The position numbers were made by a program, and so were the translations under genes. The notes under the pieces were generated by a model. It made no database searches. It was not told where the DNA came from and was given only the letters and a program-made list of their open reading frames with translations. From contig JBBTVB010000002.1 in the NCBI GenBank assembly GCA_038063455.1, forward strand, positions 1,296 to 65,295: a stretch of 64,000 nt of DNA, written 5' to 3'. Of this stretch, positions 769 through 58,810 are shown piece by piece. Position 1 is the first letter of the stretch. The number at the start of each line of letters is the position of its first letter. Source of the stretch: Patescibacteria group bacterium (lineage in GTDB: Bacteria > Patescibacteriota > Patescibacteriia > PEXW01).

Positions 769-856
769 TGGTGGGTCGGGAAGGGATCGAACCTTCGAAG
801 GCGCAAGGCCAGCAGATTTACAGTCTGCCCCGTTTGACCACTTCGGTACCGACCCA
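769..856 (-). tRNA. tRNA-Tyr (anticodon GTA), class II with long variable arm, CCA encoded
   Basis: Cloverleaf built by eye: acceptor GGGTCGG/CCGACCC, anticodon stem GCAGA/TCTGC with loop CTGTAAA, T-arm GAAGG-TTCGATC-CCTTC, discriminator A, then CCA. Confidence 0.9.
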
Positions 857-7507: not shown

Positions 7508-7671
7508 AACACGTTACTCAACCTAGCCCTTAAGGCCATTGCCTATGCAGCTTCTGCGGACGTCCCGAGCTATATAACCCACACATACGTGGTTTATAGT
7601 GTTTTCGTGTATATTCTTTCGAAAATTCAACGCCATTACCAGGCACCTATCTCGTTCTCTAGCTTGTCTCT

Positions 7672-10600: not shown

Positions 10601-13428
10601 ACCTCAACGCTGGCACCTACACCGTGCGTGAAGTGCAGCAGAACGGCTGGCTCCAAACCGCACCGCAAGGTGGTGAATGGACCATCCAGCTCGCCGTCAA
10701 CCAGGAAGTAAGTGGTAAAGACTTCGGCAACTTCCAGCTCGGTAAAATCTGGGGCTACAAGTACGAAGACAAAGATGGCGACGGCAACGTGGACCAGAGC
10801 GACGTGAAGAAAGACGGTTGGACTATCTGCTTGAATGGTCCGTTGCAAAAATGTGTTGTCACTGGAGAAAACACCCAGGATCATAATTGGCCAGATGGCT
10901 ACTATGAATTCACCGGTCTTACCGCTGGCAACTACACCGTTACCGAGCAGCGCGCCACCGGCTGGTACGTCGTGGCCCCGCAACTTACGGGCTACAACGT
11001 AGCCATTGATTCCGGTGATGTTGAGCAGAAGAACTTCTTCAACTTCAAGGGTTTTGACCTGACCGTGAAGAAGCTCATTGACGGCGATGCCAGTTTGCAA
11101 ACCACCGGCGACCAAACACCAGGCCAAAACTGGGAAATCCAACTCTGGAAGAATGGGCAGCCATGCACAGTGCAGACCTGTGGTGACTTTACAAAGTACA
11201 CAGATCAAAACGGTACAGCCACCTGGACGAACTTGCCATACGGCGAGTACGAGGTAAAAGAAATTTTCAACGGCAACGAATGGCAAGCCCTGCTCTCGGA
11301 CAACATCACCGTGCCAAACTGGAGCGATGACGACAGCAGCAAGACGGTTGGCGAATTCGATGCAATGTCTGGTACAAACGTGGAAGTCACGTTTATTAAC
11401 TGGAAGCGCGCGCCGGTGAAGATTGCTGGATACAAGATCGTCTGTGAAAACGAATCTTATCTCCCCGATTGGGCATACCACAATGCGCCAGGCAGCATCA
11501 CTGCTTCCACTGCACAGAACTTCGTGAACTCTGTAAATGCACAATACGAACATAATGTGTGCGAACTAGTCCCGGACTGGAACTTCCAGTGGGGTTTTAG
11601 TGACCAGGTCGGCAACCCGGGTGACAACACCCCCGAAGCCGCGGCCAACTGGCACACCTTTGCCGCAAATGGCACGCCGGTAACCATTGATGCCTTCACC
11701 GGCACCAAGAACCTGCGCGTCCGCGAAGTGTGGAATGACCTGCACATCCCCTTCGACGGCACCATCAACCCGAAAAGCGTCAAGATCGGCGCTGAGTTCT
11801 ACTGCGGCACAGACATTAAGAACTTTGACAACTACGAGTACGTAGATGGCGTGCAGTACGGTTTGAATGGCAGCCAGCCGACGTACTACTGCGTAGCCTT
11901 CAATGTTCGCCAGACCGGAACTGTGACTGTGCATAAAAACTTTGATGATAACGGTGATGGTGAGATTGACCGTGTTAATCCCGAAGAATGGACTTGGGAC
12001 GTCGTTGATGGTCAACAGAACAATGTTGGTAGTGCGACGCTAACCCTGCCTACAGGCAATTACAGTCTTTCTGAAGATGTTATCGCGGGCTACTCCACAA
12101 CCTGGAGCTGCACAAACGAAACTACGGGCCAAGGTACGGTTATTCCAGTGGCGGTAGGTTACAACCAAAATGTTACGTGTACATTCACGAACACCTTACC
12201 GAAATTAACAATTACCAAAACTGCTAACCCTGCGGTCGTCAACGGCAACCAAGACGTGACTTACACAGTCATCTGGTCGGTCGCTGGAGCCAAAGCCACC
12301 GATGTGGTGGTTACTGACCCCATTCCAGCCAACACCAGCTTCGTCTCCATGAGCTGCACAGGCACCGTAGGTACCTGCACCACCAGCACCACTGGCACGC
12401 CAGTGAGCTCGGTCAGCTGGAACCTCGGTACCCGTAACCCAGGCGAAAACGGCACACTCGTGCTCGTGGTAAAGACTGCGGTTTCGGTGCCGAATGGCTC
12501 GGTTATTCCGAACATTGCCAATATCAAGAGCGCCGAAGTTGACCCGGTATTTGCTCAAGCCGACGTGAAGGCTGCAACTGCTCCGGTGCTGCAAATTACC
12601 AAGACTGGCAGCGCAACAATCGTAAACCCCGGCGACCCGCTTACCTACACCGTCAAGGTGAAGAACGTGGGCACAGACACCGCCGTGAACGCCGTGGCAA
12701 CGGATACTCTCCCAGCCGGCTTCAGCTTTGTTAGCACCAGCCCGGTCGCCAACAGCATTGTTGGGCAGACAGCCACCTGGAATTTGGGCAACATGATTGT
12801 GGGCCAGGAAGTAACGCTTACCTACACCGTGAACGTTGCGCCAGGCACCACGGCCGGTGTCTACGACAACATTGCCAAAGCAAAGGCAGACAACGCGCCG
12901 GAAGTGAGCACCAAAGTGCCGGTAACCACCCGCGTACCACAAGTCTTGGGTGAAACCACCAGCCCGGTGTTAGAAATTTCCAAGAGCGTTAATAAGAAAG
13001 CCGTTACGCCTGGTACGGTTGTTACCTACACCGTTAAGGTAAAAAACAGCGGCACGGGCAGCGCGATCAATGTCGTGCTTCAGGATATCCTGCCACTCGG
13101 CTTTACCTTCGATGGCACCAGCAACACCAGCCAATCTTGGAACCTCGGCAACATTGCCGTCGGTGAAACCAAGACGGTGAGCTACAAGGTAAAGGTTGGT
13201 TCCAGCGTGCCAAACGGCGCGTACGAAAATCTAGCGCTGGCCACTGCAGACAACCACGGCAAAGTGACGGCTACTGCGCCGGTCCAAGTGAAACGCGGCC
13301 GCGTGCTTGGTGCCACAGTGGATACCGGGGCCGGTATTGCTGACTACGCCATTGCAGCCAGCGGTCTGGGACTCATTATCCTGGGCTACGTTATCACCCG
13401 CCGCAAGAACGGTAACATAACCGCTTAA
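7672..13428 (+). CDS. giant cell-surface protein (VWA + SdrD-B/Cna-B-like + DUF11 repeats) with C-terminal membrane anchor
   Basis: 1918 aa. N-terminal signal/TM segment. VWA MIDAS motif DTSGS in GLDIGLVVDTSGSVS. Ca-binding SdrD-B-like blocks (FEDENGNGVRNNGDDG, YEDKDGDGNVDQSD). Three DUF11-like repeats (L.ITKT...TYTV.V.N.G). C-terminal hydrophobic helix followed by RRKNG. The alternative start at 7702 (MPNL) is possible. Confidence 0.9.
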   Translation: MTYLFKSNWHMPNLIIKKSTKRRALKTINVISTLAIILNTGLVSAFINPTAASAADTVLNSPSENIENASGDSWNNASSAYANGGVAATDSSGERHRYYNFNFSIPNASSIDGISVKADAWSSDSSGCQLGVDLSWNSGSSWSNEKTQNLSGNEATYTLGGSSDKWGSHTWQPSEFSNANFRVRVRDIDPGQNCQDSATTSLDWLQAQIHYTEASVTPTPVANPALAQTCGLDIGLVVDTSGSVSTSEMTQMKTALTNFTNAFVGTPTVFSLSSFALESVVEKNFSRTPAQMAADISTDIPADGDGSTNWDGGLARGFSTFDPRADKANLIVIATDGSPNHYGYPDAVPSGPDLWEEALNKAIERANAIKTAGTRIVVVGIGDDSSDPSTPAQKLDKMKAISGPNVATVPANITTSTDVIKVTNFDDIGAALSAYVKQLCGGKILVQKQFENDPNASLAGYTFDVDGSPSNPAAQVTTATGSLAFNDMLNGTYSVTETVVQPNTTLASATCVNGNSPVGTLDLNGRTISGLAMGTDDTISCTFVNKLLPPPDGTLKVNKQFDDNGDGQVDRTNPQGWTWDITSGDQNIAGGTTKTLTAGSYGVSEDAIANYTATWSCNNQTSGTGTNFNVTVVANQAVQCAFLNTRNTGRIVFDKVVVGGSALDSAFTFTVNAQNYKDGDAATFLTGSYPLTEGAVTGYTLTGASGACSLGQNGVTLNVTTQGGTCTITNTRDTGTLIVHKDVLNPDGGAVADTHNFSVLLNAGNQKTIAEGTDATYNNLDTGTYTIVENADGDYTFVSYSADGDANVAGAQVTVTKGQTTHLTVTNKQKKATITIYKNVLNAAGNEVSDATAFTVQRTGGSNGSIAEGAPWAVQVNPGTYTFTEVANSNYTTTSTNPKQLTVGSNGTAEYTFVNKQKSSGISGKKFEDENGNGVRNNGDDGMDDWKIYLDLNNNDQWDNGEPYDWTDNNGYYSFSNLNAGTYTVREVQQNGWLQTAPQGGEWTIQLAVNQEVSGKDFGNFQLGKIWGYKYEDKDGDGNVDQSDVKKDGWTICLNGPLQKCVVTGENTQDHNWPDGYYEFTGLTAGNYTVTEQRATGWYVVAPQLTGYNVAIDSGDVEQKNFFNFKGFDLTVKKLIDGDASLQTTGDQTPGQNWEIQLWKNGQPCTVQTCGDFTKYTDQNGTATWTNLPYGEYEVKEIFNGNEWQALLSDNITVPNWSDDDSSKTVGEFDAMSGTNVEVTFINWKRAPVKIAGYKIVCENESYLPDWAYHNAPGSITASTAQNFVNSVNAQYEHNVCELVPDWNFQWGFSDQVGNPGDNTPEAAANWHTFAANGTPVTIDAFTGTKNLRVREVWNDLHIPFDGTINPKSVKIGAEFYCGTDIKNFDNYEYVDGVQYGLNGSQPTYYCVAFNVRQTGTVTVHKNFDDNGDGEIDRVNPEEWTWDVVDGQQNNVGSATLTLPTGNYSLSEDVIAGYSTTWSCTNETTGQGTVIPVAVGYNQNVTCTFTNTLPKLTITKTANPAVVNGNQDVTYTVIWSVAGAKATDVVVTDPIPANTSFVSMSCTGTVGTCTTSTTGTPVSSVSWNLGTRNPGENGTLVLVVKTAVSVPNGSVIPNIANIKSAEVDPVFAQADVKAATAPVLQITKTGSATIVNPGDPLTYTVKVKNVGTDTAVNAVATDTLPAGFSFVSTSPVANSIVGQTATWNLGNMIVGQEVTLTYTVNVAPGTTAGVYDNIAKAKADNAPEVSTKVPVTTRVPQVLGETTSPVLEISKSVNKKAVTPGTVVTYTVKVKNSGTGSAINVVLQDILPLGFTFDGTSNTSQSWNLGNIAVGETKTVSYKVKVGSSVPNGAYENLALATADNHGKVTATAPVQVKRGRVLGATVDTGAGIADYAIAASGLGLIILGYVITRRKNGNITA

Positions 13429-17434: not shown

Positions 17435-17456
17435 AAAACGCCCTTGTTTTCCTTTA

Positions 17457-17560
17457 CCCCTCCTGCGCCTCCCCTTTGAAAGGGGAGGATATTTATAGTG
17501 CATGCGAACTATCCCCTCCTCTCGGAGGAGGGGTGCCGAACCCGCAAGGGTGAGGCGGGG
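17457..17560 (+). repeat. CCTCC/GGAGG multi-hairpin intergenic repeat, copy 1
   Basis: Closing stem CCCCTCCT/AGGCGGGG. It encloses hairpin A (CCTCCCCTTTGAAAGGGGAGG), an AT-rich spacer, hairpin B (TCCCCTCCTCTCGGAGGAGGGGTG) and a small hairpin C. Confidence 0.75.
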
Positions 17561-17572
17561 CGGTTCTAAAAT

Positions 17573-18388
17573 CTACCGCGCTACCAAATACACGGCCAGC
17601 GCGCCCGCGGCGGCTAACCGGTACCACGCAAACACCGCAAGCGTATGGCCCTGCAAGTATCGAAGTAAAAAGCGGATGACCACGTAGCCAACGGCTGCGG
17701 ACATGGCAATGCCAATGCCAACCTGCAGCAACTCTGCTGAACTCGGACTCCCCTGCACCAGTTCCGTAGCTTTAAAAAGTCCGGCGCCAGCCACCACAGG
17801 CAGCGAGACCAAGAAAGCAAAGCGGGCGGCAGTTTGCCTATCCAAGCCGCGCGCCAGCCCGGCCACAATGGTCGCGCCCGAGCGGGAGATGCCGGGAATA
17901 AGCGCAATGACCTGGGCCACACCAATAATCCATGCGGAGCTGAAGCTAACAGTCTTGCTAACCGAACGGTGCTTGGCCCAATGTTCAACCCAGAAAAAGA
18001 CGAAGGCCCCAAGGGCGAGTGTGCACACCACGACCCAGAGATTCCGCACATGGCCTTCTACCCAGGCATCCGCAAAAAAACCTACGGCTGCGGCAGGAAT
18101 CGCGCCGACAATCACCGTCCACGCATGACGCTGGTCCGTATCCCCTGCCAGGTTCCAACGTCGAAGTGACCGAAAAAAACCACGCAGCAGGCTCACCACG
18201 TCCTGCCAGAAATAGATGAACAACGCCAAAAGCGTGCCCAAGTGCAACGACGCGTCAAAACGCAAACTATTGGCGACATCAAACGTCAGCAACTCATGAA
18301 AAGCCAGTAAGTGGCCAGAGCTAGAAATCGGCAGGAATTCGGTGAGTCCCTGCACGACGCCAAGAATAAAAGCGTGTATACTATCCAT
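17573..18388 (-). CDS. uppP: undecaprenyl-diphosphatase
   Basis: GVVQGLTEFLPISSSGHL signature. Start moved to MDSIHAF at 18388; the track ORF has a 37-aa non-homologous N-terminal extension. Confidence 0.9.
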   Translation of the reverse strand: MDSIHAFILGVVQGLTEFLPISSSGHLLAFHELLTFDVANSLRFDASLHLGTLLALFIYFWQDVVSLLRGFFRSLRRWNLAGDTDQRHAWTVIVGAIPAAAVGFFADAWVEGHVRNLWVVVCTLALGAFVFFWVEHWAKHRSVSKTVSFSSAWIIGVAQVIALIPGISRSGATIVAGLARGLDRQTAARFAFLVSLPVVAGAGLFKATELVQGSPSSAELLQVGIGIAMSAAVGYVVIRFLLRYLQGHTLAVFAWYRLAAAGALAVYLVAR

Positions 18389-18395
18389 ATTAACT

Positions 18396-18824
18396 ATGAA
18401 TTCGAGCATCATTATTGTACCAATTCTCACCGCCGTTGGCACGCAAGTGCTCAAGCTGGCTATTGACCACATTAAGGGCAACTTGGACCTGAAGCACATG
18501 TGGGACAGCTATGGGGGCATGCCCAGCTCCCACGCGGCGTTTGTGGCATCATTAACGACGATGGTGGGCTTTAGCGAGGGCATATGGTCAGCTGCGTTCG
18601 CCATTAGCTTTGTCTTCAGCCTCATTACCATCCGCGATGCCTTTGGTTTCCGCTACGAAATCGGCGTGCACGGCAAAATTCTCAATCGTTTAGTAAGCGA
18701 GCTACCGGGCGAGGAAGCGAAAACCTATCCTAAACTCTCTGAAAAGTGGGGCCACACCCCGGCAGAGATTAGTGTGGGCACAATTATCGGTATCCTGGTA
18801 GGTGCCATCGTGAGTGGGATGTAA
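18396..18824 (+). CDS. divergent PAP2-family membrane protein (DUF212/YuiD-like)
   Basis: GGMPSSHAAF motif with about 4 TM helices. Start moved to MNSSIII at 18396, 8 nt from the divergent uppP start. Confidence 0.7.
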   Translation: MNSSIIIVPILTAVGTQVLKLAIDHIKGNLDLKHMWDSYGGMPSSHAAFVASLTTMVGFSEGIWSAAFAISFVFSLITIRDAFGFRYEIGVHGKILNRLVSELPGEEAKTYPKLSEKWGHTPAEISVGTIIGILVGAIVSGM

Positions 18825-18854
18825 TATTGTTTTACAGGCACTCTTACACTTAGC

Positions 18855-19092
18855 ACGTCTTCGGGGTCTGGGGGTTCGAAAAGCGGACCCTGCGTATACG
18901 AGTCTAGTCTTTCCTACTCAGGACACGCGTTTGAGAACCTCCAGCAGTCTTTTGGTGATACCTTTTCTGCTGACAGAAAAGGTATCTGATTCGTGAGTAA
19001 TCAAAATAAACCGCACAAATACCTCTTCGTCGTCACGAAAAAATGCGAGATCCCTCCCCCTCGACTACACTCGGGGTCGGGATGACAAAAGA
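18855..19092 (+). repeat. structured intergenic element, copy A (paralog of 41376-41616 on the opposite strand)
   Basis: Aligns by eye over about 240 nt with the reverse complement of 41376-41616. Shared blocks are ACGTCT..GGGGTCTGGGGG, CTCCAGCAGTCTTT, CCTTTTCTGCTG.CAGAAAAGG, CGTGA.T.A, TCACGAA and GGATGACA.AAG. Hairpin stems differ by compensatory changes. Confidence 0.7.
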
Positions 19093-19125
19093 GTATAGAA
19101 AACTACTCTACCTACTTCGATACTT

Positions 19126-20040
19126 TTATTTCTGGCACTTTGGGCAATAGTGCGTCCCCCGTCCGCCCAAGCTGATGCGGACAATTTTTTTGCCGCACCG
19201 AAAGCACGGTTGGCCTTTGCGGTCATAGACTTTGTGGTACCGGCCATACGTCCCAATCGAACCATCGGTCCGGATAAATTCGCCAACCGACGAGCCGTGC
19301 GTGCGGATGGCATGCTGCAGCACGCGTTGCAGGCTTTGAAAAAGCCGCGGCCAATCTGCTGGCTTGAGTGATTGTACCTTGCGGGTGGGTTTAATGCGGG
19401 CAGCAAAAAGGATTTCATCCGCATAAATATTCCCTACCCCAGCAAGCAACGTTTGGTCAGTTAGTGCTTGCTTAATTGGCATATTAGGCCGCCGCCGCAG
19501 CGCTACCTGCAGGCGTGTTGCGGTAAAGCCGCGCGCCAGCGGCTCTGGGCCATACCCGGCCAGGTCCGCAACCTTTGGCAGGTCGGCATCCTGCACGGCC
19601 CGCCAGGTACCGAACAACCGAGCATCGTTATAGTAGAGCAAAGTGCCATCGCTAAAACGTACGGTGATGTGCGTGTGCTTGCTCGGCATGGCCTCCAGCG
19701 GCGCGTGGGCCGAGTTGAGCAACCGAATGAGCAAACGCTTTTGACCTTTGTGCTGGATAACCATTTGCCCAGCCATTTTTAGGTGGACAAAGAGCCACCA
19801 GCCGCCAGAGAGCTGAAATTGAATAAGTTTGGCTCGACGCACAACCCGCACAATTTTTTTACCAATAATAGCGCGCTGAAAAGCCCGCACGTGCACCTGT
19901 GAGTGCTGACGCCTGGGGCTTAAGGTTTTAGGGCCAACCGAAACAAGCTTCGGTTTGTGTACGACAACGCTGGCAACCCGCTTACCAGTGAGTCCCTGTA
20001 GACCACGGACGACGGTTTCGACCTCGGGCAGCTCGGGCAT
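19126..20040 (-). CDS. mutM: formamidopyrimidine-DNA glycosylase (Fpg/Nei family)
   Basis: N-terminal MPELPEVE with catalytic Pro2. C-terminal zinc finger CFRCG...CPKC. Confidence 0.9.
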   Translation of the reverse strand: MPELPEVETVVRGLQGLTGKRVASVVVHKPKLVSVGPKTLSPRRQHSQVHVRAFQRAIIGKKIVRVVRRAKLIQFQLSGGWWLFVHLKMAGQMVIQHKGQKRLLIRLLNSAHAPLEAMPSKHTHITVRFSDGTLLYYNDARLFGTWRAVQDADLPKVADLAGYGPEPLARGFTATRLQVALRRRPNMPIKQALTDQTLLAGVGNIYADEILFAARIKPTRKVQSLKPADWPRLFQSLQRVLQHAIRTHGSSVGEFIRTDGSIGTYGRYHKVYDRKGQPCFRCGKKIVRISLGGRGTHYCPKCQK

Positions 20041-38888: not shown

Positions 38889-39821
38889 ATGCCTATAGCC
38901 GAAGTTTCGGCACGGAGTTTCCGGTGGATTAATATTACCGGAGCCACGGCCGATGACGCACCAGAAATCCGATACCTGCGGGAACACTTCCCGTACTTTA
39001 GCGCACTTGATATTAAAGACTGCGTCAGCACCGGCCAGCGACCGAAGTTAGAAGTGTACGATCGGTACGCTTTTTTGGTACTCATGTTCCCCATTTACAA
39101 TCGGCAGACCCGGGAAATTGAGTCGTCAGAGATTGATTTTTTCATTGGTAAAGATTTCCTCATAACCATCCACGACAACAAGCGGCATGTGTTAGAAGAA
39201 ACATTTAAAGAGTTCCACGCCCAAGCAAAATCTTCTAACGAAGCACCTGATGTTCTCTTAACCGTCATTGACCTTATTAACAAACTTCTCGGCGCCTGCT
39301 TCCCCATGCTCGACCACATTTCGCTGGACTTGCACGCCATTGAACGACTTATTTTCCGGGGCAAAGAGCGGGAAATGGTCCAGGAAATTTTGGTTACCCG
39401 CCGCAACATTGTGGATTTCCGCAAAATTATGCAAGCCCAGAAGAATACCATTAAAAAGCTGACGCTGGCGCAGCGTGTGCTGGGCTTGCCGAATGCGGAG
39501 CACGTGGGCAATGTGTTAAGCAACACCGTCGAGCGTTCCAAAGAAATCTGGGATAATCTCGAAGCCTTTAAAGAAGCAGTCGAAGCTCTGCAAGCTACGA
39601 ATGAGTCGCTTATCTCGTACCGCCTCAACGACGTGATGAAGACCTACACCACTATCTCGGTAGTTATCTTCACCCTCACACTCATTACTACCATCTTCGC
39701 CGCCCGACTCCCCCACACTCCGCTGATAGAAACTGACTACGGCTTCTACGCCATGCTCGGGATTCTTTTGGTAGTGGCGCTATCGGCGGTTGGAATATTT
39801 AAATGGAAGCGTTGGCTGTAA
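38889..39821 (+). CDS. CorA-like divalent-cation transporter family protein lacking the GMN signature
   Basis: CorA-like cytoplasmic domain and two C-terminal TM helices. The loop reads [15 protein letters not shown] where YGMNF is expected. Promoter TTGCCA-17-TAGAAT lies upstream. Confidence 0.7.
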
Positions 39822-39825
39822 ACCT

Positions 39826-40797
39826 ATGGACACAACCTACATCATCATCGTTGTTGCGGTCCTGGCCATCGTGGTGGTCATGGCTTTGCGCAAGCAGTCG
39901 CAAGGTGCGAGCATGCACAGCGGCGGCCACATGCTATCGCTCTACTCCAAAGATCTCACTAGCCTAGCCAAAGCCGGCAAGCTGGACCCGGTCATCGGCC
40001 GCAAAAACGAAATTTACCGCGTCATCGAAATCCTGTCGCGTCGCACCAAGAACAACCCTGTCCTCATTGGCAAATCCGGCGTGGGTAAAACTGCCATTGT
40101 CGAAGAGCTGGCCAACGAGCTGGCAACGGGCAATGTACCCGAAACGCTAAAAACGAAACGTGTGCTTGCGCTCGATCTCTCGGGTTTGGTTGCCGGCACC
40201 AAGTACCGCGGTGAATTTGAAAAGCGTTTAAAAACGTTGGTTGACGAAATTATTGCCGCCGAGCGCCATATTATTTTATTCATCGACGAAATCCACACTT
40301 TGGCCGAAGCCGGTGAAGCCACTGGCGCAATTGACGCCGCGGATATCCTCAAACCCGCACTAGCGCGCGGCGAACTCCAGGTCATCGGCGCAACGACGCT
40401 GGAAGAGTACCGCAAATACGTGGAAAAAGACCAAACCCTGGAGCGACGTTTTCAGCCGGTTATTGTGGAAGAGCCCTCCCCTACCCAGACCATTGAGATC
40501 CTAAAGGGCTTACGGAAAAAGTACGAAAGCTACCACCACGTTACCTACTCGGATGCAATCCTGGAAGCAATTGTGCAGCTGGCCCAGCAACACCTGCAAG
40601 AGCGGGTGTTTCCCGACAAAGCCATCGACATTTTGGATGAAGCCGGTTCCCGCGTGCACCTGGAGCAAATCGAGTCGGGCAAATCAAGTACGGGAAATAA
40701 GGAAGTGCAACTGGAAGACCTACGGATTATTGTGAATAGCTTTGTTGAACTGCCCAAACAGGAAGCGGCTATGCTGGGCAAACCAAACGTGCAATAA
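39826..40797 (+). CDS. membrane-anchored single-domain Clp/Hsp100 D1-type AAA+ ATPase
   Basis: N-terminal TM helix. Then LDPVIGR..E......[32 protein letters not shown] and [29 protein letters not shown]. There is no N-domain and no D2 domain. Confidence 0.75.
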
Positions 40798-40820: not shown

Positions 40821-41294
40821 GTGAGAACTATGGAAAGAATGTTTGACCACAAAGTTAACTACGGATCCCCGGTGGTTCTCGCCCTGAGCTTTATTTTTGT
40901 GTTCCTCTTGGGCCTGTTCTTCATCTGGGCAATCGGCAACGCCACCGACAGTATTGGCCCAAACATGGCAGCTTTCAAGCACAAAGATGAGCAAGCGCAG
41001 TCAGCCGTGTATACTAGTGGCGCTTGGGCAGCCAGCAAGGGTTGCTTGGTAGCGTACGTGCAGGCAGACAATGCCGGCTCCTTTGCCGACACCAAGATGA
41101 CATCCGCGCAGAAAGTTGCAGCAGTCGTAGCCAAGTATGATGCCACCAAGTTGCAGGACCTGAATACGAAAGTGGTTTCCTGCGCAGCCAAGAGCATCCC
41201 TGTAAGCTGGGGCGGCGCCGTTCTCGTGAGCGTAACCAAGACGGGCGCGACGGATTTCAGTGTTGAGAGCGTAGCAACGATGCTCGCCGAGTAA
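40821..41294 (+). CDS. hypothetical membrane-anchored protein, 157 aa
   Basis: GAAAGGAGGTG SD. One TM helix. Confidence 0.6.
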   Translation: MRTMERMFDHKVNYGSPVVLALSFIFVFLLGLFFIWAIGNATDSIGPNMAAFKHKDEQAQSAVYTSGAWAASKGCLVAYVQADNAGSFADTKMTSAQKVAAVVAKYDATKLQDLNTKVVSCAAKSIPVSWGGAVLVSVTKTGATDFSVESVATMLAE

Positions 41295-41329: not shown

Positions 41330-41369
41330 CCCGAAAACCTGATCGTCTACAGCGATCGGGTTTTCGTTT
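41330..41369. terminator. bidirectional rho-independent terminator
   Basis: CCCGAAAACCTGATCG / CGATCGGGTTTTCG long stem followed by TTTA. Confidence 0.75.
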
Positions 41370-41375
41370 ATAGTG

Positions 41376-41616
41376 CTTCTGTCATCCTGAGTCCTGCACT
41401 AGCAGGAAGAAGGATCTTGCTGTTTATTCGTGAAGACGCAGTGATGTTCGTCAGTTACTATTGGTCATTCACGCATTCACCACCTTTTCTGGCAGCAGAA
41501 AAGGTGGTGCCCAAAGACTGCTGGAGATGGCTCGACGCGGTCGCCTCCGTAGGACGGCAGAGTACCCTGGATGCTCGGCCCCGCGGCGATCCACCCCCAG
41601 ACCCCCGGCAGACGTT
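41376..41616 (-). repeat. structured intergenic element, copy B (paralog of 18855-19092)
   Basis: See copy A. Contains the perfect 14-bp hairpin CACCACCTTTTCTG-CTGC-CAGAAAAGGTGGTG and the hairpin ATCCT..TCCTGC-TAGT-GCAGGA..AGGAT. Confidence 0.7.
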
Positions 41617-41900
41617 CTCAAAAAGCATACCCTATAGACTAAAGTCATTTGGCATGTACTTGTTGCCCTGCGCAGTCCCGTCAGCAGGCGGGACGGAGCA
41701 GTCGTGCCGGGGTAGGGGGTGTCGGAGCTGAAAACCGGACGAGGTTTCCAGCGGGGCGGCCCCGCCAGACGGCGGGGTAAACCTTCGACACTCCGAGCCC
41801 CTGGCCCCTGACAAGAGAAAACGTTAGTGAACAAAAGGAGCCGAACGAATGGCAATTCGTCGTCACCCAATGCCGCCAGCCGCTGCTCACCTTCAGCTAG
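41617..41900 (-). ncRNA. ORF-free GC-rich hairpin-dense region contiguous with copy B (candidate structured RNA, class unknown)
   Basis: Only Arg/Pro-rich, non-protein-like ORFs occur on either strand. Long-range helix GGGGCTCGGAG/CTCCGACACCCC encloses CCCCGCC-GTCT-GGCGGGG. Further hairpins are GTCCCG...CGGGAC and ACGAAT-TGCC-ATTCGT. Confidence 0.4.
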
Positions 41901-41904
41901 TAAT

Positions 41905-42903
41905 TTATAGTGCGGTGGGAAGTATGGGTAAAAAATCTTGCAAAGCCCCGGCCACATCTTCATAGGTCGCCGAGCGCACTAACTGGCCGCGTAAAGTTGC
42001 AGCATTCGGCAAACCCTTCACGTACCAAGCTAAATGTTTTCGTAATTCAATGAGGCCGCGCGGGCCGTGGGCAGCAAACGCAATCTGCGCGTGTTGCAAG
42101 ATTGCGTGCTTGGTGGCTTCCCAATCCCGCGGGATGTACCGACCGGTCGCCAGGTACGCTTTAATCTCCTCGAAAAGCCAGGGCCTGCCCCAGCTACCGC
42201 GCGCCACGCCCACGCCATCGGCCCCGGTTTGGTCGAGAAGGGCCTTCGCATCTTCGGGCGTGTGCACGCCACCATTCGCCAGCACAATGCCTGGGAATGC
42301 TTTCTTCACCTGGGTTATCGCATCTACATTCGGTGAACCGTCAAAAGGGCGTTCAAAGCTGCGACCGTGAATCATAACCGTGGCAACCGGTAAACCTTTA
42401 ATAACCTCAATAAGGTCGAGCGCTGTTACTTGCCCTTCCGGATCGTCTACGGCGCAACCTTCTTTACAAATGCTGGCGCGAATCTTAATGGATACCGGAA
42501 TCGGCGATCCCTCGCAGGTAGCTTGCACAATCTCGCGGACCAAATCTAGTCGGCGCATTAAGGTCACTCCCCCGCCGTGCTTCACTACTTTGTAGGCCGG
42601 GCAGCCGAAGTTAATATCCACGCCCGCAAAACCCAATTCGGCTAGCACCTTTGCGCTCTTAAAATAGTGTCCCGGATTTTTGCCGAACACCTGGCACACT
42701 ACCGGCTGCTCGGCCGCAGAGAACTTGAGCATCTCAAAGGTCTTCTTGCTCTCGTACACAATCGCGTCCGTGGACACGAATTCCGTGTACAGCACGTCCG
42801 CCCCGCCGGCTTTGCACATTTGCCGGAAGGCCGTGTCAGTGACACCGGCCATGGGGGCCAGCGCCAAAATCGGCTTGGGGAGGCTAAGCCAGAAGTTCTG
42901 CAT
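41905..42903 (-). CDS. dus: tRNA-dihydrouridine synthase
   Basis: LAPMAGVTD.AFR, the block DINFGCPAYKVVKHGGG with the catalytic Cys, and HGR. Confidence 0.85.
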   Translation of the reverse strand: MQNFWLSLPKPILALAPMAGVTDTAFRQMCKAGGADVLYTEFVSTDAIVYESKKTFEMLKFSAAEQPVVCQVFGKNPGHYFKSAKVLAELGFAGVDINFGCPAYKVVKHGGGVTLMRRLDLVREIVQATCEGSPIPVSIKIRASICKEGCAVDDPEGQVTALDLIEVIKGLPVATVMIHGRSFERPFDGSPNVDAITQVKKAFPGIVLANGGVHTPEDAKALLDQTGADGVGVARGSWGRPWLFEEIKAYLATGRYIPRDWEATKHAILQHAQIAFAAHGPRGLIELRKHLAWYVKGLPNAATLRGQLVRSATYEDVAGALQDFLPILPTAL

Positions 42904-45930: not shown

Positions 45931-46019
45931 GACCCCTCCCAGCCCTCTCCTTCGTAAGGGGAGGAGTTTATAAAAATCCCCTCCTCTCGGAGGAGGGGTG
46001 GCCAATGGCCGGGGTGGTC
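45931..46019 (+). repeat. CCTCC/GGAGG multi-hairpin intergenic repeat, copy 2
   Basis: Hairpin A (CCTCTCCTTCGTAAGGGGAGG), an AT spacer, hairpin B (TCCCCTCCTCTCGGAGGAGGGGTG, identical to copy 1), hairpin C (GGCCAATGGCC) and the closing GGGGTGGTC. Confidence 0.75.
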
Positions 46020-51716: not shown

Positions 51717-52781
51717 TTACGATGCCGCCTTCACGCCATAGTGCGACGCGGCAAATGTGTACTGTTCCACAAAAATTTTTCGCAAGGGAACAATAGTATT
51801 CAATTCGTACAGTGCCAGCGTTGCCTCCCGATAGGCTACCTCATCCACACTTCGATAAGACAACGGTGCGCGACCATGTGCGAGAAGTACGGCATTTGCC
51901 ATGAGTCGGGCGGTACGTTTGTTGCCATCACCAAACGGCTGAATGTAGCTAATTCCCAGGAGTGCCACAAACGCCTTGGCGTAGGGTGAGGTCATACTGT
52001 TCACCGAGGTTGTCAGCTGGTCTACTGCTTCGGTAACCTGGTGTGCGTTATCCAGCGGCTGGTAACGTGAGCCAACAACACCAACGGGCTTGCTTCGAAA
52101 ACCTAGGTCAATATCTAAATCTGCAACGAGTAAGGCGTGTACCTTTTCCAGATGAGCGCGCGTGACGGTGCGGAAGTCCGTAGCGTGTGAATAAATCCAG
52201 GTAAACGCGGCCTTGTGGTTCAGGATCATTGCTGCCTCTTGCTTATCGTGTCCAACAGCAGGCGTGTTTTCCAGAAGCAACTTCTCCGTATCGAGGAGGG
52301 TGTAGGTGTTGCCCTCAATTTTTGAAGATTTCCAAGACAGCTCAATAACGAGCCGTTCGAGCTCCTTCTTCTGCATTGCTTCCGAAAGGTCCGTTGTTCG
52401 CACCTCGTATGCCTGTGTCGCCTGCTGCAGCATGTCCGCCTCCTGCTTGGAGAAAATATCAACCGGTAACTCTGGAAATAACTGGAAGTTGAAGTTCTGA
52501 AAACCGTACCGTTTATCCGGCTCCACCGCACAGTACTGCCGCGCATCAACATCAGCAAATACCCGGCCAACCGTGGCAATTTTGTACCGGGTTGCGCGGC
52601 CAGACCCGACAACCGCGAGTAAACCGGTTGCTACCATTTCCGAAAGCGCACGTTTTATCGTAACCAACGAAGTACGTAGTCCTGCTTCGGTAACTCTTGT
52701 GTGTACGGCAGAAGACGACATTTCCCCAAACTGGAGAAAGATCTTAAGCAATTGCTGCTGTTTTTCGTTTATTTCTATCAT
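51717..52781 (-). CDS. Fic/Doc-family protein with N-terminal wHTH, inhibitory SxxxEG motif and a degenerate active-site motif
   Basis: SSKIEGN fits (S/T)xxxE(G/N). The active-site position reads IQPFGDGNKRTAR where HxFx(D/E)GN(G/K)RxxR is expected, so His is replaced by Gln and the NKR is Doc-like. Confidence 0.75.
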   Translation of the reverse strand: MIEINEKQQQLLKIFLQFGEMSSSAVHTRVTEAGLRTSLVTIKRALSEMVATGLLAVVGSGRATRYKIATVGRVFADVDARQYCAVEPDKRYGFQNFNFQLFPELPVDIFSKQEADMLQQATQAYEVRTTDLSEAMQKKELERLVIELSWKSSKIEGNTYTLLDTEKLLLENTPAVGHDKQEAAMILNHKAAFTWIYSHATDFRTVTRAHLEKVHALLVADLDIDLGFRSKPVGVVGSRYQPLDNAHQVTEAVDQLTTSVNSMTSPYAKAFVALLGISYIQPFGDGNKRTARLMANAVLLAHGRAPLSYRSVDEVAYREATLALYELNTIVPLRKIFVEQYTFAASHYGVKAAS

Positions 52782-56178: not shown

Positions 56179-58101
56179 TTACTTCTTAACCTCCTCGTAC
56201 TTCGCATCCACCGGCTCGTCCTTAGACCCTGAGCCTGTCGAAGGGTCATCCTTCTTATCCCCTCCTGCCGCAGGCCCCGAGCTTGTCGAGGGGTCGGCTT
56301 TCTGGTCCTTGTACATCGCCTGACCAATCTTCTGAATCGTCTGCCCCAAATCATCCGTGGCTTTCTTGATGGCATCCTTGTCCTCGCCATCCTTCACCTT
56401 TTTCACGGCCTCGATCTTTTCTTCAACTTCCTTCTTCACGTCGGCCGGGACTTTGTCACCGCCGTCTTTTATCGCTTTCTCCGCCGTGAACACCAAGCTA
56501 TCCGCACCGTTGCGCACGTCAATAAGCTCGCGCTTCTGCTTGTCCTCGTCCGCGTGCAGGGCGGCATCCTGCTTCATGCGTTCCACTTCGTCTTTGGATA
56601 AGCCGGACGACGCCGTAATGGTAATGCTCTGCTCTTTGCCGCTGGCCTTGTCTTTGGCCTTCACGTTGAGGATGCCGTTGGCGTCAATGTCGAACGTCAC
56701 TTCCACCTGCGGCACGCCGCGCGGCGCCGGCGGGATGCCGGACAGGATGAACCGGCCCAGGGACTTGTTGTCCCCAGCCATGGGTCGCTCCCCTTGCAGG
56801 ACGTGAATTTCCACCGAGGTTTGATTATCCGCGGCCGTGGAGAACACTTGGGACTTTGAGGTGGGGATAGTGGTATTGCGCTCGATGAGCGGGGTGGACA
56901 CGCTGCCCAGGGTTTCCAGGCCCACGGAGAGCGGGGTCACGTCCAGCAACAGCACGTCGCGTACTTCGCCTTGCAGCACGCCGGCTTGCACGGCTGCGCC
57001 AATGGCCACCACTTCGTCCGGGTTCACGCCCAGGTGGGGCTTTTTGCCGAAAAACTTTTCTACAGTTGATAGCACCAACGGCATACGAGTCATGCCGCCG
57101 ACCATGATCACTTCGTTAATGTCGGCGGGCGTAAGGCCGGCGTCTGCCAAAGCCTTCTTGGTTGGTTCCAGGGTTTGCTCCACCAGGTCGCCCACCAGCT
57201 GCTCCAACTTGGCGCGGGAGAGCTTGAGTACCAAGTGCTTGGGGCCGGACGCATCCGTGGTAATAAACGGCTGGTTGATCTCGGTTTCCGTGGTGGTGGA
57301 AAGCTCGTGCTTGGCCTTTTCCGCGCTCTCCTTAAGGCGCTGCAGGGCCATCTGGTCGTTGCCCAGATCAATGCCCTGGTCCTTCTTGAACTCGTCGATA
57401 ATCCAGTGGATAATCCGCTGGTCAAAGTCGTCGCCGCCCAGGTGGGTGTCGCCGTTGGTGGCTTTCACTTCCACCGTGTCGTTGGACACTTCCAGGATGG
57501 AAATGTCGAACGTGCCGCCGCCCAGGTCGTACACCGCAATTTTCTCGTCCTTCTTCTTGTTAAAGCCGTAGGCGAGCGCCGCGGCCGTGGGTTCGTTGAT
57601 AATGCGCTTCACCGTAAGGCCGGCAATTTCGCCGGCGTCCTTGGTGGCTTGGCGCTGACTATCGTCAAAATAGGCAGGAACCGTGATGACCGCTTCGGTA
57701 ATTTTCTCACCGAGCTTGGCTTCGGCGTCTTCTTTCATTTTTTGGAGGACGAGCGCGGAGATTTCTTGGGGGGCCATAGATTTGTCACCCATGCTCACTT
57801 TAACGCCTTCGCCTGCTTGGACAACTTTAAACGGAAAGACTTTGACGTCGCGTTGGACTTCTTCGTCGTTCCAGTGCCGGCCAATCAGGCGCTTGATGGA
57901 GTAGAGCGTATTTTGCGGGTTCACCACGGCTTGGCGCTTGGCCACTTGGCCCACCAGGCGCTCGCCGGTTTTGGAAATAGCTACAACAGAAGGCGTGGTG
58001 CGGTTGCCTTCCTTGTTTTCTAGTACCTTTGGCTCACCGCCTTCGATGATGGCCATGCAGGAGTTGGTTGTACCGAGGTCGATACCGAGAATTTTTGACA
58101 T
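56179..58101 (-). CDS. dnaK: chaperone DnaK (Hsp70)
   Basis: [17 protein letters not shown] and VGGMTRMP blocks. 640 aa. Confidence 0.97.
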
Positions 58102-58143: not shown

Positions 58144-58302
58144 AATTACCACCCCGCCCCGTGCTCGGGGCACCCCTCCTTAGTTAAGGAGGGGAGGCTA
58201 AGGAAGATGATGAATGGGGAAAGAAAACGTTTTGAGTGTTTGTCTCCCCTCCTCGGATGAGGAGGGGTGGCTCCCGCTACTGCGGGAGATGGGGTGGTAA
58301 TT
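58144..58302 (+). repeat. CCTCC/GGAGG multi-hairpin intergenic repeat, copy 3
   Basis: Closing stem ACCACCCC/GGGGTGGT. Hairpins CCCCG-TGCT-CGGGG, CCCCTCCTTAGTTAAGGAGGGG, TCCCCTCCTCGGATGAGGAGGGGTG and TCCCGC-TACT-GCGGGA. Confidence 0.8.
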
Positions 58303-58642
58303 AGTTCGTGAGAGAATCGCTGTCGAGCACTTTGTGCAGTTCCATAATGTCATCACTGTCCACGTCATTCACATCCTTGAACTTCATCACATCCTGCGCG
58401 GTCAAGTCCGTTATCATCCCGCGGAACATCAGGCCTTGGGGCGACATGGTCATGGTGGCCACGGCCGACGTGCCGCAGTTGCCGCACTTCAGGTGGAGCA
58501 GGGTGGAACCATTTTCTTCGGCCAGCACCTGCGTCTTGCGGAAGTCGAACAGGTTGCCGCAGCTGGGGCAGTGGCCGTCCAGGCGCAGGTGGTCGGACTT
58601 GTTGCCATCTTTACCGAAACTGGGAAGGGCGAATTGGGCCAT
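58301..58642 (-). CDS. zinc-ribbon protein, 113 aa
   Basis: CPSC...(24 aa)...CGNC four-Cys pattern with an acidic C-terminus. Sits between grpE and dnaK on the same strand. Confidence 0.65.
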   Translation of the reverse strand: MAQFALPSFGKDGNKSDHLRLDGHCPSCGNLFDFRKTQVLAEENGSTLLHLKCGNCGTSAVATMTMSPQGLMFRGMITDLTAQDVMKFKDVNDVDSDDIMELHKVLDSDSLTN

Positions 58643-58664
58643 AGGGTAGTTAGTTTTGGGGAGG

Positions 58665-58810
58665 AATTACCACCCCCTGCCCCCTCCTTTTCGTAAGGAG
58701 GGGAGGCAAAGGGTGAAAATCCATACGCCTAATGAAATGATCTTTCTCTCTGCTTCCCCTCCTCGGATGAGGAGGGGTGGATCCCGCTACTGCGGGAGAC
58801 GGGGTGGTAA
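58665..58810 (+). repeat. CCTCC/GGAGG multi-hairpin intergenic repeat, copy 4
   Basis: Same architecture as copy 3. The last ~60 nt differ from copy 3 at only 2 positions. Confidence 0.8.

Follow-up and report, generated by a model that had tools for sequence, protein, structure and literature searches.

A probable new family of pseudoknotted structured RNAs in intergenic gaps of Patescibacteria

The aptamers SAM-II, SAM-V and preQ1-II share an H-type pseudoknot fold: their U-rich loop 1 occupies the major groove of the second stem, where it engages in base triples. Triple helices of the U.A-U type are a known device for giving an RNA rigidity and nuclease resistance. Here, we describe a family of intergenic elements that appears to use the same architecture, namely an H-type pseudoknot whose loop 1 would form major-groove triples. 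The elements were found in a stretch of 64,000 nucleotides (nt) from a bacterium of the Patescibacteria (candidate phyla radiation, CPR; assembly GCA_038063455.1, contig JBBTVB010000002.1, positions 1,296 to 65,295), which was analysed as a whole and is called the window below. It harbors three copies, A, B and C, whose make-up is modular: a helix, P1, encloses a variable domain and can be followed by a core of pseudoknot and hairpin P2 and by two further hairpins, P3 and P4.

Several described systems resemble these elements in one respect and differ from them in others. In contrast to the three aptamers, the family RNA is three to five times larger, carries the additional P1, P3 and P4 domains and occurs as several paralogues per genome. 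The telomerase RNA pseudoknot and the MALAT1/PAN ENE likewise have an A-U-rich helix whose purine strand is accompanied in parallel by a pyrimidine third strand, with a C+.G-C position among the triples, but our family is bacterial, has no evident template or poly(A) partner and shows no homology to these RNAs. With sibling small RNAs (sRNAs) such as Qrr, RsmX/Y/Z and CsrB/C, it would have in common independently transcribed paralogues with a conserved core and a copy number that varies between species; unlike the family, these sRNAs consist of simple stem-loops and have partners or motifs that are known (Hfq seeds, GGA repeats), and no motif, partner or target of this sort was found for the copies studied here. 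The scaffolds of TnpB and Cas12 proteins (reRNA/omega-RNA), finally, also combine a base-triple stem-loop, the apical loop of which forms a short pseudoknot, with variable stems around an invariant core. In the TnpB reRNA, this pseudoknot joins the apical loop of the triplex stem-loop to nucleotides that flank the 3′ guide (PMC10711439).

Copy A (18855-19092, plus strand) aligns end to end with the reverse complement of copy B (41376-41616), with a mean column identity of 78% including the flanks. In nhmmer searches each finds the other, with E values of 1.7e-18 in one direction and 8.5e-19 in the reverse one, and a 14-mer block, CTCCAGCAGTCTTT, occurs at only two sites in the window, one in each of them. 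A preliminary description made from the sequence had proposed two intergenic paralogues of about 240 nt, and the full-length alignment together with E values of about 1e-18 bears this out. Among the window copies, identities lie at about 70-78%. Copies A and B fold below their dinucleotide shuffles (z scores of -3.3 and -4.3), and copy A is matched at 18860-19043 by two covariance models, R1 (175 bits) and R2 (150 bits). The stem differences between A and B are indeed compensatory, as had been described: the outer part of P2 reads GAUAC/GUAUC in one and CACCA/UGGUG in the other, the outer pair of P4 is C-G as opposed to U-A, and the inner stem of P4 has been replaced. Two further statements were correct only in part. 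Several of the conserved blocks that had been taken for single-stranded are paired, since CTCCAG forms the 3′ P1 strand, CAG belongs to the pseudoknot, and CGTGA/TCACG are the strands of P3. Likewise, both copies lie in convergent gaps, but copy B does not directly follow dus: about 290 nt separate the two, and the oppositely oriented copy C is located in between.

Support for a conserved secondary structure comes from covariation. A covariance model was built from only three copies and then used to align ten full-length copies; P1, P2 and P3 were fitted to this model, and the pseudoknot is not part of it. In the resulting alignment, 94.8% of the cells hold standard pairs as compared to 83.1% in shuffles, and double-sided changes occur at 22 of the 33 pairs, as opposed to 6.0±1.8 in shuffles (0 of 500 shuffles reached 22) and 2-7 pairs in slid controls. 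The P1 columns are 100% paired, and three of their seven pairs covary, with an outer pair that is C-G, U-A, G-C or U.G; this long-range pairing, across 55-100 nt, is thus kept by compensatory change. Covariation is seen at 10 of 14 pairs in P2, at six of nine in P3 and, among three copies, at four of 11 in P4. Homologues whose substitutions break the helices would have spoken against the structure; the distant homologues instead keep the helices by compensatory changes.

The modules P1, pseudoknot-P2 core, P3 and P4 are also found apart from each other. There is a core without P3 (L036; L-numbers are our labels for related contigs or loci that were compared with the window), P1 with P3 and without the core (copies of type 2), and P3 alone (L006). 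Two additional pairings that had come up were set aside. The first alifold proposal joined a 5′ GGG to the UCU that follows P1; it is in competition with the covarying pseudoknot and leaves the tracking between loop 1 and P2, which is described below, unexplained. In copy A, the P3 loop can also pair with the 3′ strand of P2, but this is not a feature of the family, as the energies are -6.6 kcal/mol with the copies' own loops and -6.3 kcal/mol with foreign loops. As a separate observation, copy A contains internal direct repeats, 18855-18868 with 19021-19034 (ACGUCUUCGGGGUC and the similar ACCUCUUCGUCGUC) and 18861-18871 with 19071-19081 (UCGGGGUCUGG and the similar UCGGGGUCGGG), which hints that modules may have arisen by internal duplication.

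The pseudoknot joins the three nucleotides directly 3′ of P1 to nucleotides 1-3 of the P2 tetraloop. In ten copies, these positions are 100% paired, and three of three pairs covary; including distant members from a second model, six complementary variants are present (CAG/CUG, CGG/CCG, CGC/GCG, UGG/CCA, AAC/GUU and CAC/GUG). The topology is that of a classical H-type pseudoknot, in which loop 1 (L1) must cross the deep groove of P2. L1 is a pyrimidine tract, and in all copies it is a parallel mirror of the purine strand of P2, for which there are five patterns: UCUUUU with AGAAAA, UUCUUU with AAGAAA, UUUCUUUC with AAAGAAAG, UUCUUUU with AAGAAAA, and UUUU with AAAA. The position of the C in L1 follows that of the G in the purine strand. 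Watson-Crick pairing between the two would require an antiparallel complement and can be dismissed, because the sequence is a parallel mirror. Since this mirror and the tracking of G by C match what is predicted for Hoogsteen triples of the U.A-U and C+.G-C type, a major-groove triplex of four to eight layers is probable. A descriptor of this tertiary signature alone retrieves 12 copies, all on the sense strand, and gives no match in 0.95 Mb of control DNA or in five shuffles.

None of the known RNAs that we searched for accounts for these elements. With the 4227 families of Rfam 15, where membership requires a covariance score at or above the gathering threshold of the family, a scan of the whole window returned only three tRNAs, and no family reached its gathering score at the copies. 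At E≤10, the loci of copies A and B gave just eukaryotic miRNA and snoRNA noise of 12-17 bits, such that the Rfam search called for in the preliminary description yields no known family at either locus; at E≤0.1, the distant loci L023, L046 and L036 gave one tRNA only. The riboswitch models, including RF00521, RF01826 and RF01054, and HEARO produced no match in these scans, and ARAGORN found three tRNAs and no tmRNA in the window. Nor do the copies appear to encode a protein. The earlier statement that they lack a plausible open reading frame (ORF) holds, in that no in-frame ORF is conserved among the copies on either strand: ORFs vary in frame and length between copies, an invariant block, TTCGTCGTCAC, is read in three frames, and in copy B a stop follows four codons after the sole start that the copies have in common. 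A small protein-coding ORF or type I toxin was rejected for this reason. Our literature searches retrieved nothing relevant on a CPR RNA of this kind. The family is therefore new in the sense that no Rfam family or searched paper describes it, though the type of tertiary motif is already known from other RNAs. Covariation, the absence of an Rfam match and the absence of a conserved ORF together uphold the proposal of a novel structured RNA family, and we regard it as very likely that these are genuine, strand-specific structured RNAs.

The assignment of the sense strand is based on the G.U pairs, on the pyrimidine nature of the third strand and on the fact that the descriptor matches one strand only. 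The ten-copy alignment contains 15 G.U cells, which on the opposite strand would be A.C mismatches. With respect to transcription, a TA-rich box, read by eye, is found 5-12 nt upstream of a conserved 5′ G-run in every copy. Copy L036a, in an AT-rich locus, is bracketed by an extended -10 promoter (TTTACA-18-TAAAAT, 10/12) and an intrinsic terminator, and L036b has a promoter-like site. Between copy B and the convergent gene for a 157-aa protein lies a strong hairpin, read as a bidirectional terminator at which copy B ends, that is conserved in L010-L013 (41332..41366); the terminator scan calls it on the plus strand, where a T-run follows, and on the strand of copy B the stem is followed by GUUUUCGGGUU. 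It thus is plausible, as far as such signals can be read from DNA, that each copy is a transcription unit of its own.

In addition to copies A-C, approximately 12 copies were found in related metagenome contigs and in distant CPR metagenome-assembled genomes (MAGs) labelled Buchananbacteria and Saccharibacteria, which amounts to about 15 copies in total, some of them closely related. A degenerate pattern of the P3 module that fits all four first-known copies had no match among 185,579 species-representative genomes and none in a metagenome collection, and this signature is therefore too narrow or too lineage-specific. A pattern of the P2 hairpin retrieved further contigs from Hainich and from JGI, and profile searches confirmed copies in L141, L145 and L138 as well as two each in L136 and L140. 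In viral contigs, the P2 pattern gave no match, and 44 matches of a loose P3 pattern were discarded as chance, as none of them fits the profile or the model. Model R2 finds members in the MAGs labelled Buchananbacteria and Saccharibacteria, which have 34-37% GC (among them a full-length copy in the Ca. Buchananbacteria locus L023 at 34% GC), and has no match in 0.95 Mb of non-CPR and viral DNA. All copies that can be assigned taxonomically are in MAGs of Patescibacteria; this statement does not extend to the JGI contigs L136, L138 and L140. Two of these, L136 and L140, carry a divergent pair of a type-1 and a type-3 copy that is comparable to the pair of copies B and C in the window. Such pairs of unlike subtypes suggest a common bidirectional promoter region, or duplication as a pair.

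A recurrent neighbor of the family is dus. Among the dus-anchored CPR loci, three of the four full-length matches are within 50 nt of this gene (P~1e-6 when all DNA is considered, ~6e-4 for intergenic DNA only), and a fifth, minimal copy is about 150 nt away. The orientation of the copies relative to dus varies, being convergent, tandem or divergent. Next to the pattern-retrieved copies of L136-L145 dus was not found, and the link is therefore partial. The clustering may go back to an ancestral locus, mark a hot spot of insertion or point to a functional link.

Two other elements were seen in gaps next to dus. In Kerfeldbacteria relatives, the gap between dus and the 157-aa gene contains a different conserved element (L011 1088-1288, L012 10976-11181, L013 7538-7695), which consists of a GGGGAAACCCUAGGGUUUCCCC hairpin, a C/U-rich tract and a GUCGCA...UGCGAC stem and is not matched by the family models. 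In the gap downstream of dus of another Patescibacteria MAG, a P2-like hairpin, GUUCCUUUUU...AAAAAGGGAAC, is found (L015, around 11040-11100, minus strand of the locus), which may be a further diverged relative of the family.

How might these elements work? The explanation that we favor is that they are lineage-restricted, independently transcribed small structured non-coding RNAs (ncRNAs) of about 150-260 nt which act in trans or within a ribonucleoprotein (RNP). As the covariation shows, the sense strand folds into P1 around its variable domain, followed by the pseudoknot with the P2 loop and by the optional P3 and P4. The L1 tract would lie in the major groove of P2 and form U.A-U and C+.G-C triples, thus creating a rigid core. 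Each copy would be transcribed on its own, from a start behind the TA-rich box and often up to a terminator. Acting in trans, the RNA might then offer its core as a stable site of recognition to a protein partner or small ligand, while the variable P1 insert, the P3 loop and P4 would lend each paralogue specific properties. Intergenic gaps would gain new copies by duplication or insertion, above all where the flanking genes converge and in the vicinity of dus, and might lose them again rapidly. We give this explanation as a whole a probability of roughly 0.55; the trans-acting mechanism itself, be it as RNA or as RNP, stands at slightly less than even odds.

A number of observations weigh against this explanation. 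The minimum free energy favors the sense strand in only seven of 11 copies and thus is indecisive as a strand test. Scans for consensus promoters and terminators were negative at copy A, L023 and L136; expression of the copies is a prediction from signals, and the triple helix is deduced by sequence logic. No partner protein, ligand or target was found, and there is no extended complementarity to other sequences of the window; when the conserved C/U-rich loop was tried there as an antisense or seed sequence, its matches did not exceed chance. Furthermore, copy A is a lineage-specific insertion. Its gap measures 301 nt and is found in this lineage only; the site is empty in four relatives (L005, L006, L008 and L009, with Fpg 83%, 78%, 71% and 60% identical), where fpg runs up to or into the DUF212 gene. 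On these grounds, the idea of an orthologous sRNA gene with a fixed place 3′ of fpg was rejected. The same subtype also occurs at non-homologous loci in close relatives. Taken together, shifting loci and separable modules fit the usual behaviour of proliferating repeats better than that of ordinary sRNA genes.

The main rival to a host-encoded ncRNA is a selfish, non-autonomous mobile element, the fold of which would serve its own propagation: an enzyme encoded elsewhere in the genome would recognise it in the form of RNA (retro-mobilisation) or of single-stranded DNA, and it would have no function for the host. Apart from the empty site of copy A and the modular composition, it could account for the remodelling of the gap between dus and the 157-aa gene among genomes that have 96% identity in Dus (L010 has a single type-1 copy in opposite orientation, the window copies B and C), and for the presence of type 2 at unlike loci in the window and in L005. 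In L005, the type-2 copy (nhmmer E~1e-15 to 1e-17 with copy C) occupies the gap between uppP and a Big_2 gene, which in L006 holds only a 50-nt P3 module, in L008 and L009 nothing, and in the window unrelated GC hairpins. Three copies within 64 kb, the divergent pairs, and copies beside dus in three orientations, which suggests a preferred insertion site, would fit as well, and presence/absence polymorphism at orthologous sites, as is used to recognise miniature inverted-repeat transposable elements or REP sequences, was found at the fpg/DUF212 site. However, no terminal inverted repeats or target-site duplications were found in or around copies A and B, which have internal helices only, and none of the 28 annotated proteins of the window is a transposase, TnpB/IscB, reverse transcriptase or integrase. 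Copies in one genome are only about 70-78% identical, which argues against a recent burst, promoter and terminator signals bracket some copies, and the core is kept by compensatory change over very distant CPR lineages, implying long-term selection. On balance, we consider such an element unlikely. A more far-reaching idea is a new RNA class, so far seen only in CPR, with the pseudoknot and an extended major-groove triple helix at its functional centre; it would be either the sensor or subunit of an undescribed RNP with an ancestral link to dus, or a non-autonomous, SINE-like element (short interspersed nuclear element) spread via RNA and lacking terminal repeats. SINE-like, RNA-mediated mobility is not known from bacteria, and we hold this idea to be speculative, if somewhat less doubtful than the purely selfish element.

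Guide RNAs offer another explanation, in which the elements are orphan guides or scaffolds for an RNA-guided protein encoded elsewhere (similar to TnpB/IscB omega-RNA, TldR or Cas12 systems). The triplex and the pseudoknot from its apical loop recall TnpB reRNA scaffolds, segments that vary (the P1 insert, the P3 loop and the 3′ tail) surround an invariant core, and CPR including Kerfeldbacteria are hosts of type V systems. But in the family the loop pairs 5′ of the hairpin and not beside a 3′ guide, there is no sequence or covariance-model similarity to such scaffolds (neither HEARO nor another Rfam family matches), and complementary 13-mers elsewhere in the window number 0 for copy A, one for B and one for C, which is chance level and applies to the window only. 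No tnpB, iscB, cas gene, CRISPR array or transposon end adjoins a window copy; the flanks are DUF212/fpg and dus/hypothetical, as opposed to the IS200/IS605/IS607 end beside tnpB or iscB that marks an omega-RNA. This explanation is improbable.

Equally little speaks for a cis-acting element, i.e., a riboswitch-like sensor, a 3′-UTR (untranslated region) stabiliser or an antisense regulator of a neighbor, in particular of dus. The architecture of the three aptamers introduced above would suggest it, as would the positions of copies G and H (L141 and L145), which lie upstream of genes in the same orientation, and of several copies that point at dus or lie directly against it, with no terminator in between. 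Yet the next gene after copies A, B and L036a is a convergent one, which leaves nothing downstream to control and no 5′ leader with an expression platform; in contrast to SAM-II, SAM-V and preQ1-II, the family lies outside the 5′ UTRs of metabolic genes. Its neighbors are unrelated to each other (DUF212/fpg, dus, tig-like, Big_2/uppP), its orientation to dus is not constant, and no riboswitch model matches.

A feature of the DNA without a function as RNA, such as a REP/BIME/BOX-like repeat, a terminator cluster or a protein-binding palindrome, is more improbable still. Like the BOX elements of pneumococci, the BIME/REP elements of enterobacteria and the Correia elements of Neisseria, the copies are multiple, modular, intergenic (often between convergent genes), polymorphic in their presence and potentially transcribed; moreover, the P2 hairpin is nearly palindromic, and the same genome has other GC-rich hairpin repeats at gene ends. 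In contrast to those elements, the copies are far more diverged, lack terminal inverted repeats and have a covarying, pseudoknotted core across distant lineages. The pseudoknot and the parallel mirror are strand-specific, which is unexpected for sites in double-stranded DNA, the descriptor hits one strand, G.U pairs are present, and P1 is maintained over its long distance by compensatory change. As a U-tract precedes the P2 hairpin, this hairpin is no terminator on either strand. A strongly diverged housekeeping RNA (6S, RNase P, SRP, tmRNA or Y RNA) that Rfam models miss in CPR, where RNAs are often divergent and where one copy is recurrently near dus, is hardly credible given three copies of unlike module content in 64 kb, the lack of copy A in four close relatives, the absence of a match at E≤10 or of a tmRNA by ARAGORN, and a multi-branch pseudoknot that we read as neither a 6S rod nor an SRP hairpin with a domain IV motif, and that lacks the conserved regions of RNase P.

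The host is assigned to the CPR because the best relatives of its Dus are from Patescibacteria (96% to 'Patescibacteria group bacterium H51-bin156_1', 82% to Ca. Kerfeldbacteria, followed by Uhrbacteria and Buchananbacteria at about 55%), and it would be placed near Ca. Kerfeldbacteria. The window sequence is matched in the MAG GCA_964364675.1 (contig CAYIMS010000001.1) and in Hainich groundwater assemblies. Its 28 annotated proteins are ordinary housekeeping proteins, among others tyrS, a P-type ATPase, a sortase, uppS, ispH, dnaX, a DEAD helicase, pyruvate kinase, dnaJ, dnaK and Fic. The coordinates of the copies, their parts and their neighbors are collected in Table 1.

Some further features of the window are recorded here. 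Short GC-rich hairpins, CCCCTCCTC...GAGGAGGGG, form a second repeat family at gene ends (17450-17490, 17511-17540, 45976-46005 and 58170-58786), with hairpins of the same kind in relatives (L010 around 7600-7660, L141 around 12740-12765, L145 around 11790, and L014); they probably are terminator-like or REP-like elements of the host clade. A 56-nt repeat with 96% identity (58245-58300 and 58755-58810, 510 nt apart) flanks a 113-aa ORF just 3′ of dnaK (56179-58101) and may represent a local duplication or a small cassette. Beside tyrS (989-2146), tRNA-Tyr (769-855, minus strand) is partly duplicated (35 nt, 97% identity, 624-658 and 796-830, 170 nt apart), which may be what remains of an old integration event at this tRNA. 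A ClpA/B-like short AAA+ protein of 335 aa, with AAA and AAA_lid_9 only, is encoded beside corA (39790-40797), and a Fic-domain protein at 51717-52781; neither has a link to the RNA.

Table 1. Coordinates of the copies, their parts and their neighbors in the window, and of related loci in other contigs (labelled by L-number)
Feature	Position	Strand	Basis or remark
Promoter-like A/T box (TACACT / TTAGCA)	18845..18855	+	putative, read from the sequence; consensus sigma-70 scan negative
Copy A, type 1, full length (P1, pseudoknot, P2, P3, P4)	18855..19092	+	alignment with copy B
Copy A, P1 5′ strand CUGGGGGUUC	18868..18877	+	pairs with 18935-18944; minimum free energy fold
Copy A, variable domain inside P1	18878..18934	+	sequence and length vary among copies; alignments
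Copy A, P1 3′ strand GAACCUCCAG	18935..18944	+	minimum free energy fold, covariation
Copy A, pseudoknot 5′ strand CAG	18945..18947	+	pairs with P2 loop 18970-18972 (CUG)
Copy A, L1 pyrimidine tract UCUUUU	18948..18953	+	parallel mirror of P2 purine strand AGAAAA; proposed triplex third strand
Copy A, P2 hairpin GAUACCUUUUCUG-CUGA-CAGAAAAGGUAUC	18957..18986	+	perfect 13-bp inverted repeat; covariation
Copy A, P3 module: CGUGA...UCACG stem, inner UAAU/GUCG pairs, A/C-rich loop of ~27 nt ending CUUCGUCG	18992..19037	+	covariation
Copy A, P4 hairpin (AUCCC...GGGAU and inner stem)	19050..19083	+	only in copies A, B, H, I
Copy A, conserved tail GACAAAAG and weak terminal hairpin AGAGUA...UACUCU	19084..19109	+	alignment; consensus terminator scan on plus strand negative
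Copy B, type 1, full length	41376..41616	-	covariance-model matches at 41423-41608: 194 bits (R1), 152 bits (R2)
Copy B, P1	41594-41600 with 41521-41527	-	
Copy B, pseudoknot	41518-41520 with 41493-41495	-	
Copy B, L1	41512-41517	-	
Copy B, P2	41478-41509	-	inverted repeat
Copy B, P3	41429-41473	-	inverted repeat
Copy B, P4	41384-41415	-	inverted repeat
Spacer of ~54 nt between divergent 5′ ends of copies B and C	41617..41670		sequence
Copy C, type 2, without P2/pseudoknot core	~41671..41866	+	repeat search (repeat D8), alignment; head-to-head with copy B
Copy C, 5′ hairpin	41675-41694	+	
Copy C, long G-rich/C-rich P1	41709-41727 with 41791-41808	+	
Copy C, P3-like module ending UUCGUCGUCAC	41822-41866	+	
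Putative bidirectional intrinsic-terminator hairpin common to copy B and convergent 157-aa gene	41332..41366		15-bp stem
DUF212/PAP2-like gene	18342-18824	+	5′ neighbor of copy A
fpg	19126-20040	-	convergent, 3′ neighbor of copy A
157-aa gene	40821-41294	+	no Pfam match; convergent with copy B
dus (tRNA-dihydrouridine synthase)	41905-42903	-	other side of the B/C gap
Copies near dus	L010 7374-7552; L023 10975-11146; L046 5372-5534; L036 ~11130-11215; window 41376-41866		16-190 nt from dus, five genomes
Divergent pairs	L136 1318-1557/1613-1785; L140 7511-7689/7744-7915; window 41376-41616/41671-41866	-/+	spacers of ~50-55 nt

The ncRNA repertoire of the CPR is almost uncharted, in a group of episymbionts with tiny genomes that makes up a large share of bacterial diversity. 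These reduced genomes still hold several copies of the RNA described here, and a tertiary core that is kept from GC-rich Kerfeldbacteria-like genomes to Buchananbacteria with 34% GC must matter either to the cell or to the RNA itself. The genomic link of the family to dus is a further point of interest. The structure, a pseudoknot with what would be up to six to eight consecutive base triples, unusually long for a bacterial RNA, is a testable one. The family also provides a case study for the gain and loss of sRNA genes or RNA elements among very close relatives, and a handle for finding the protein or ligand partner of the RNA.

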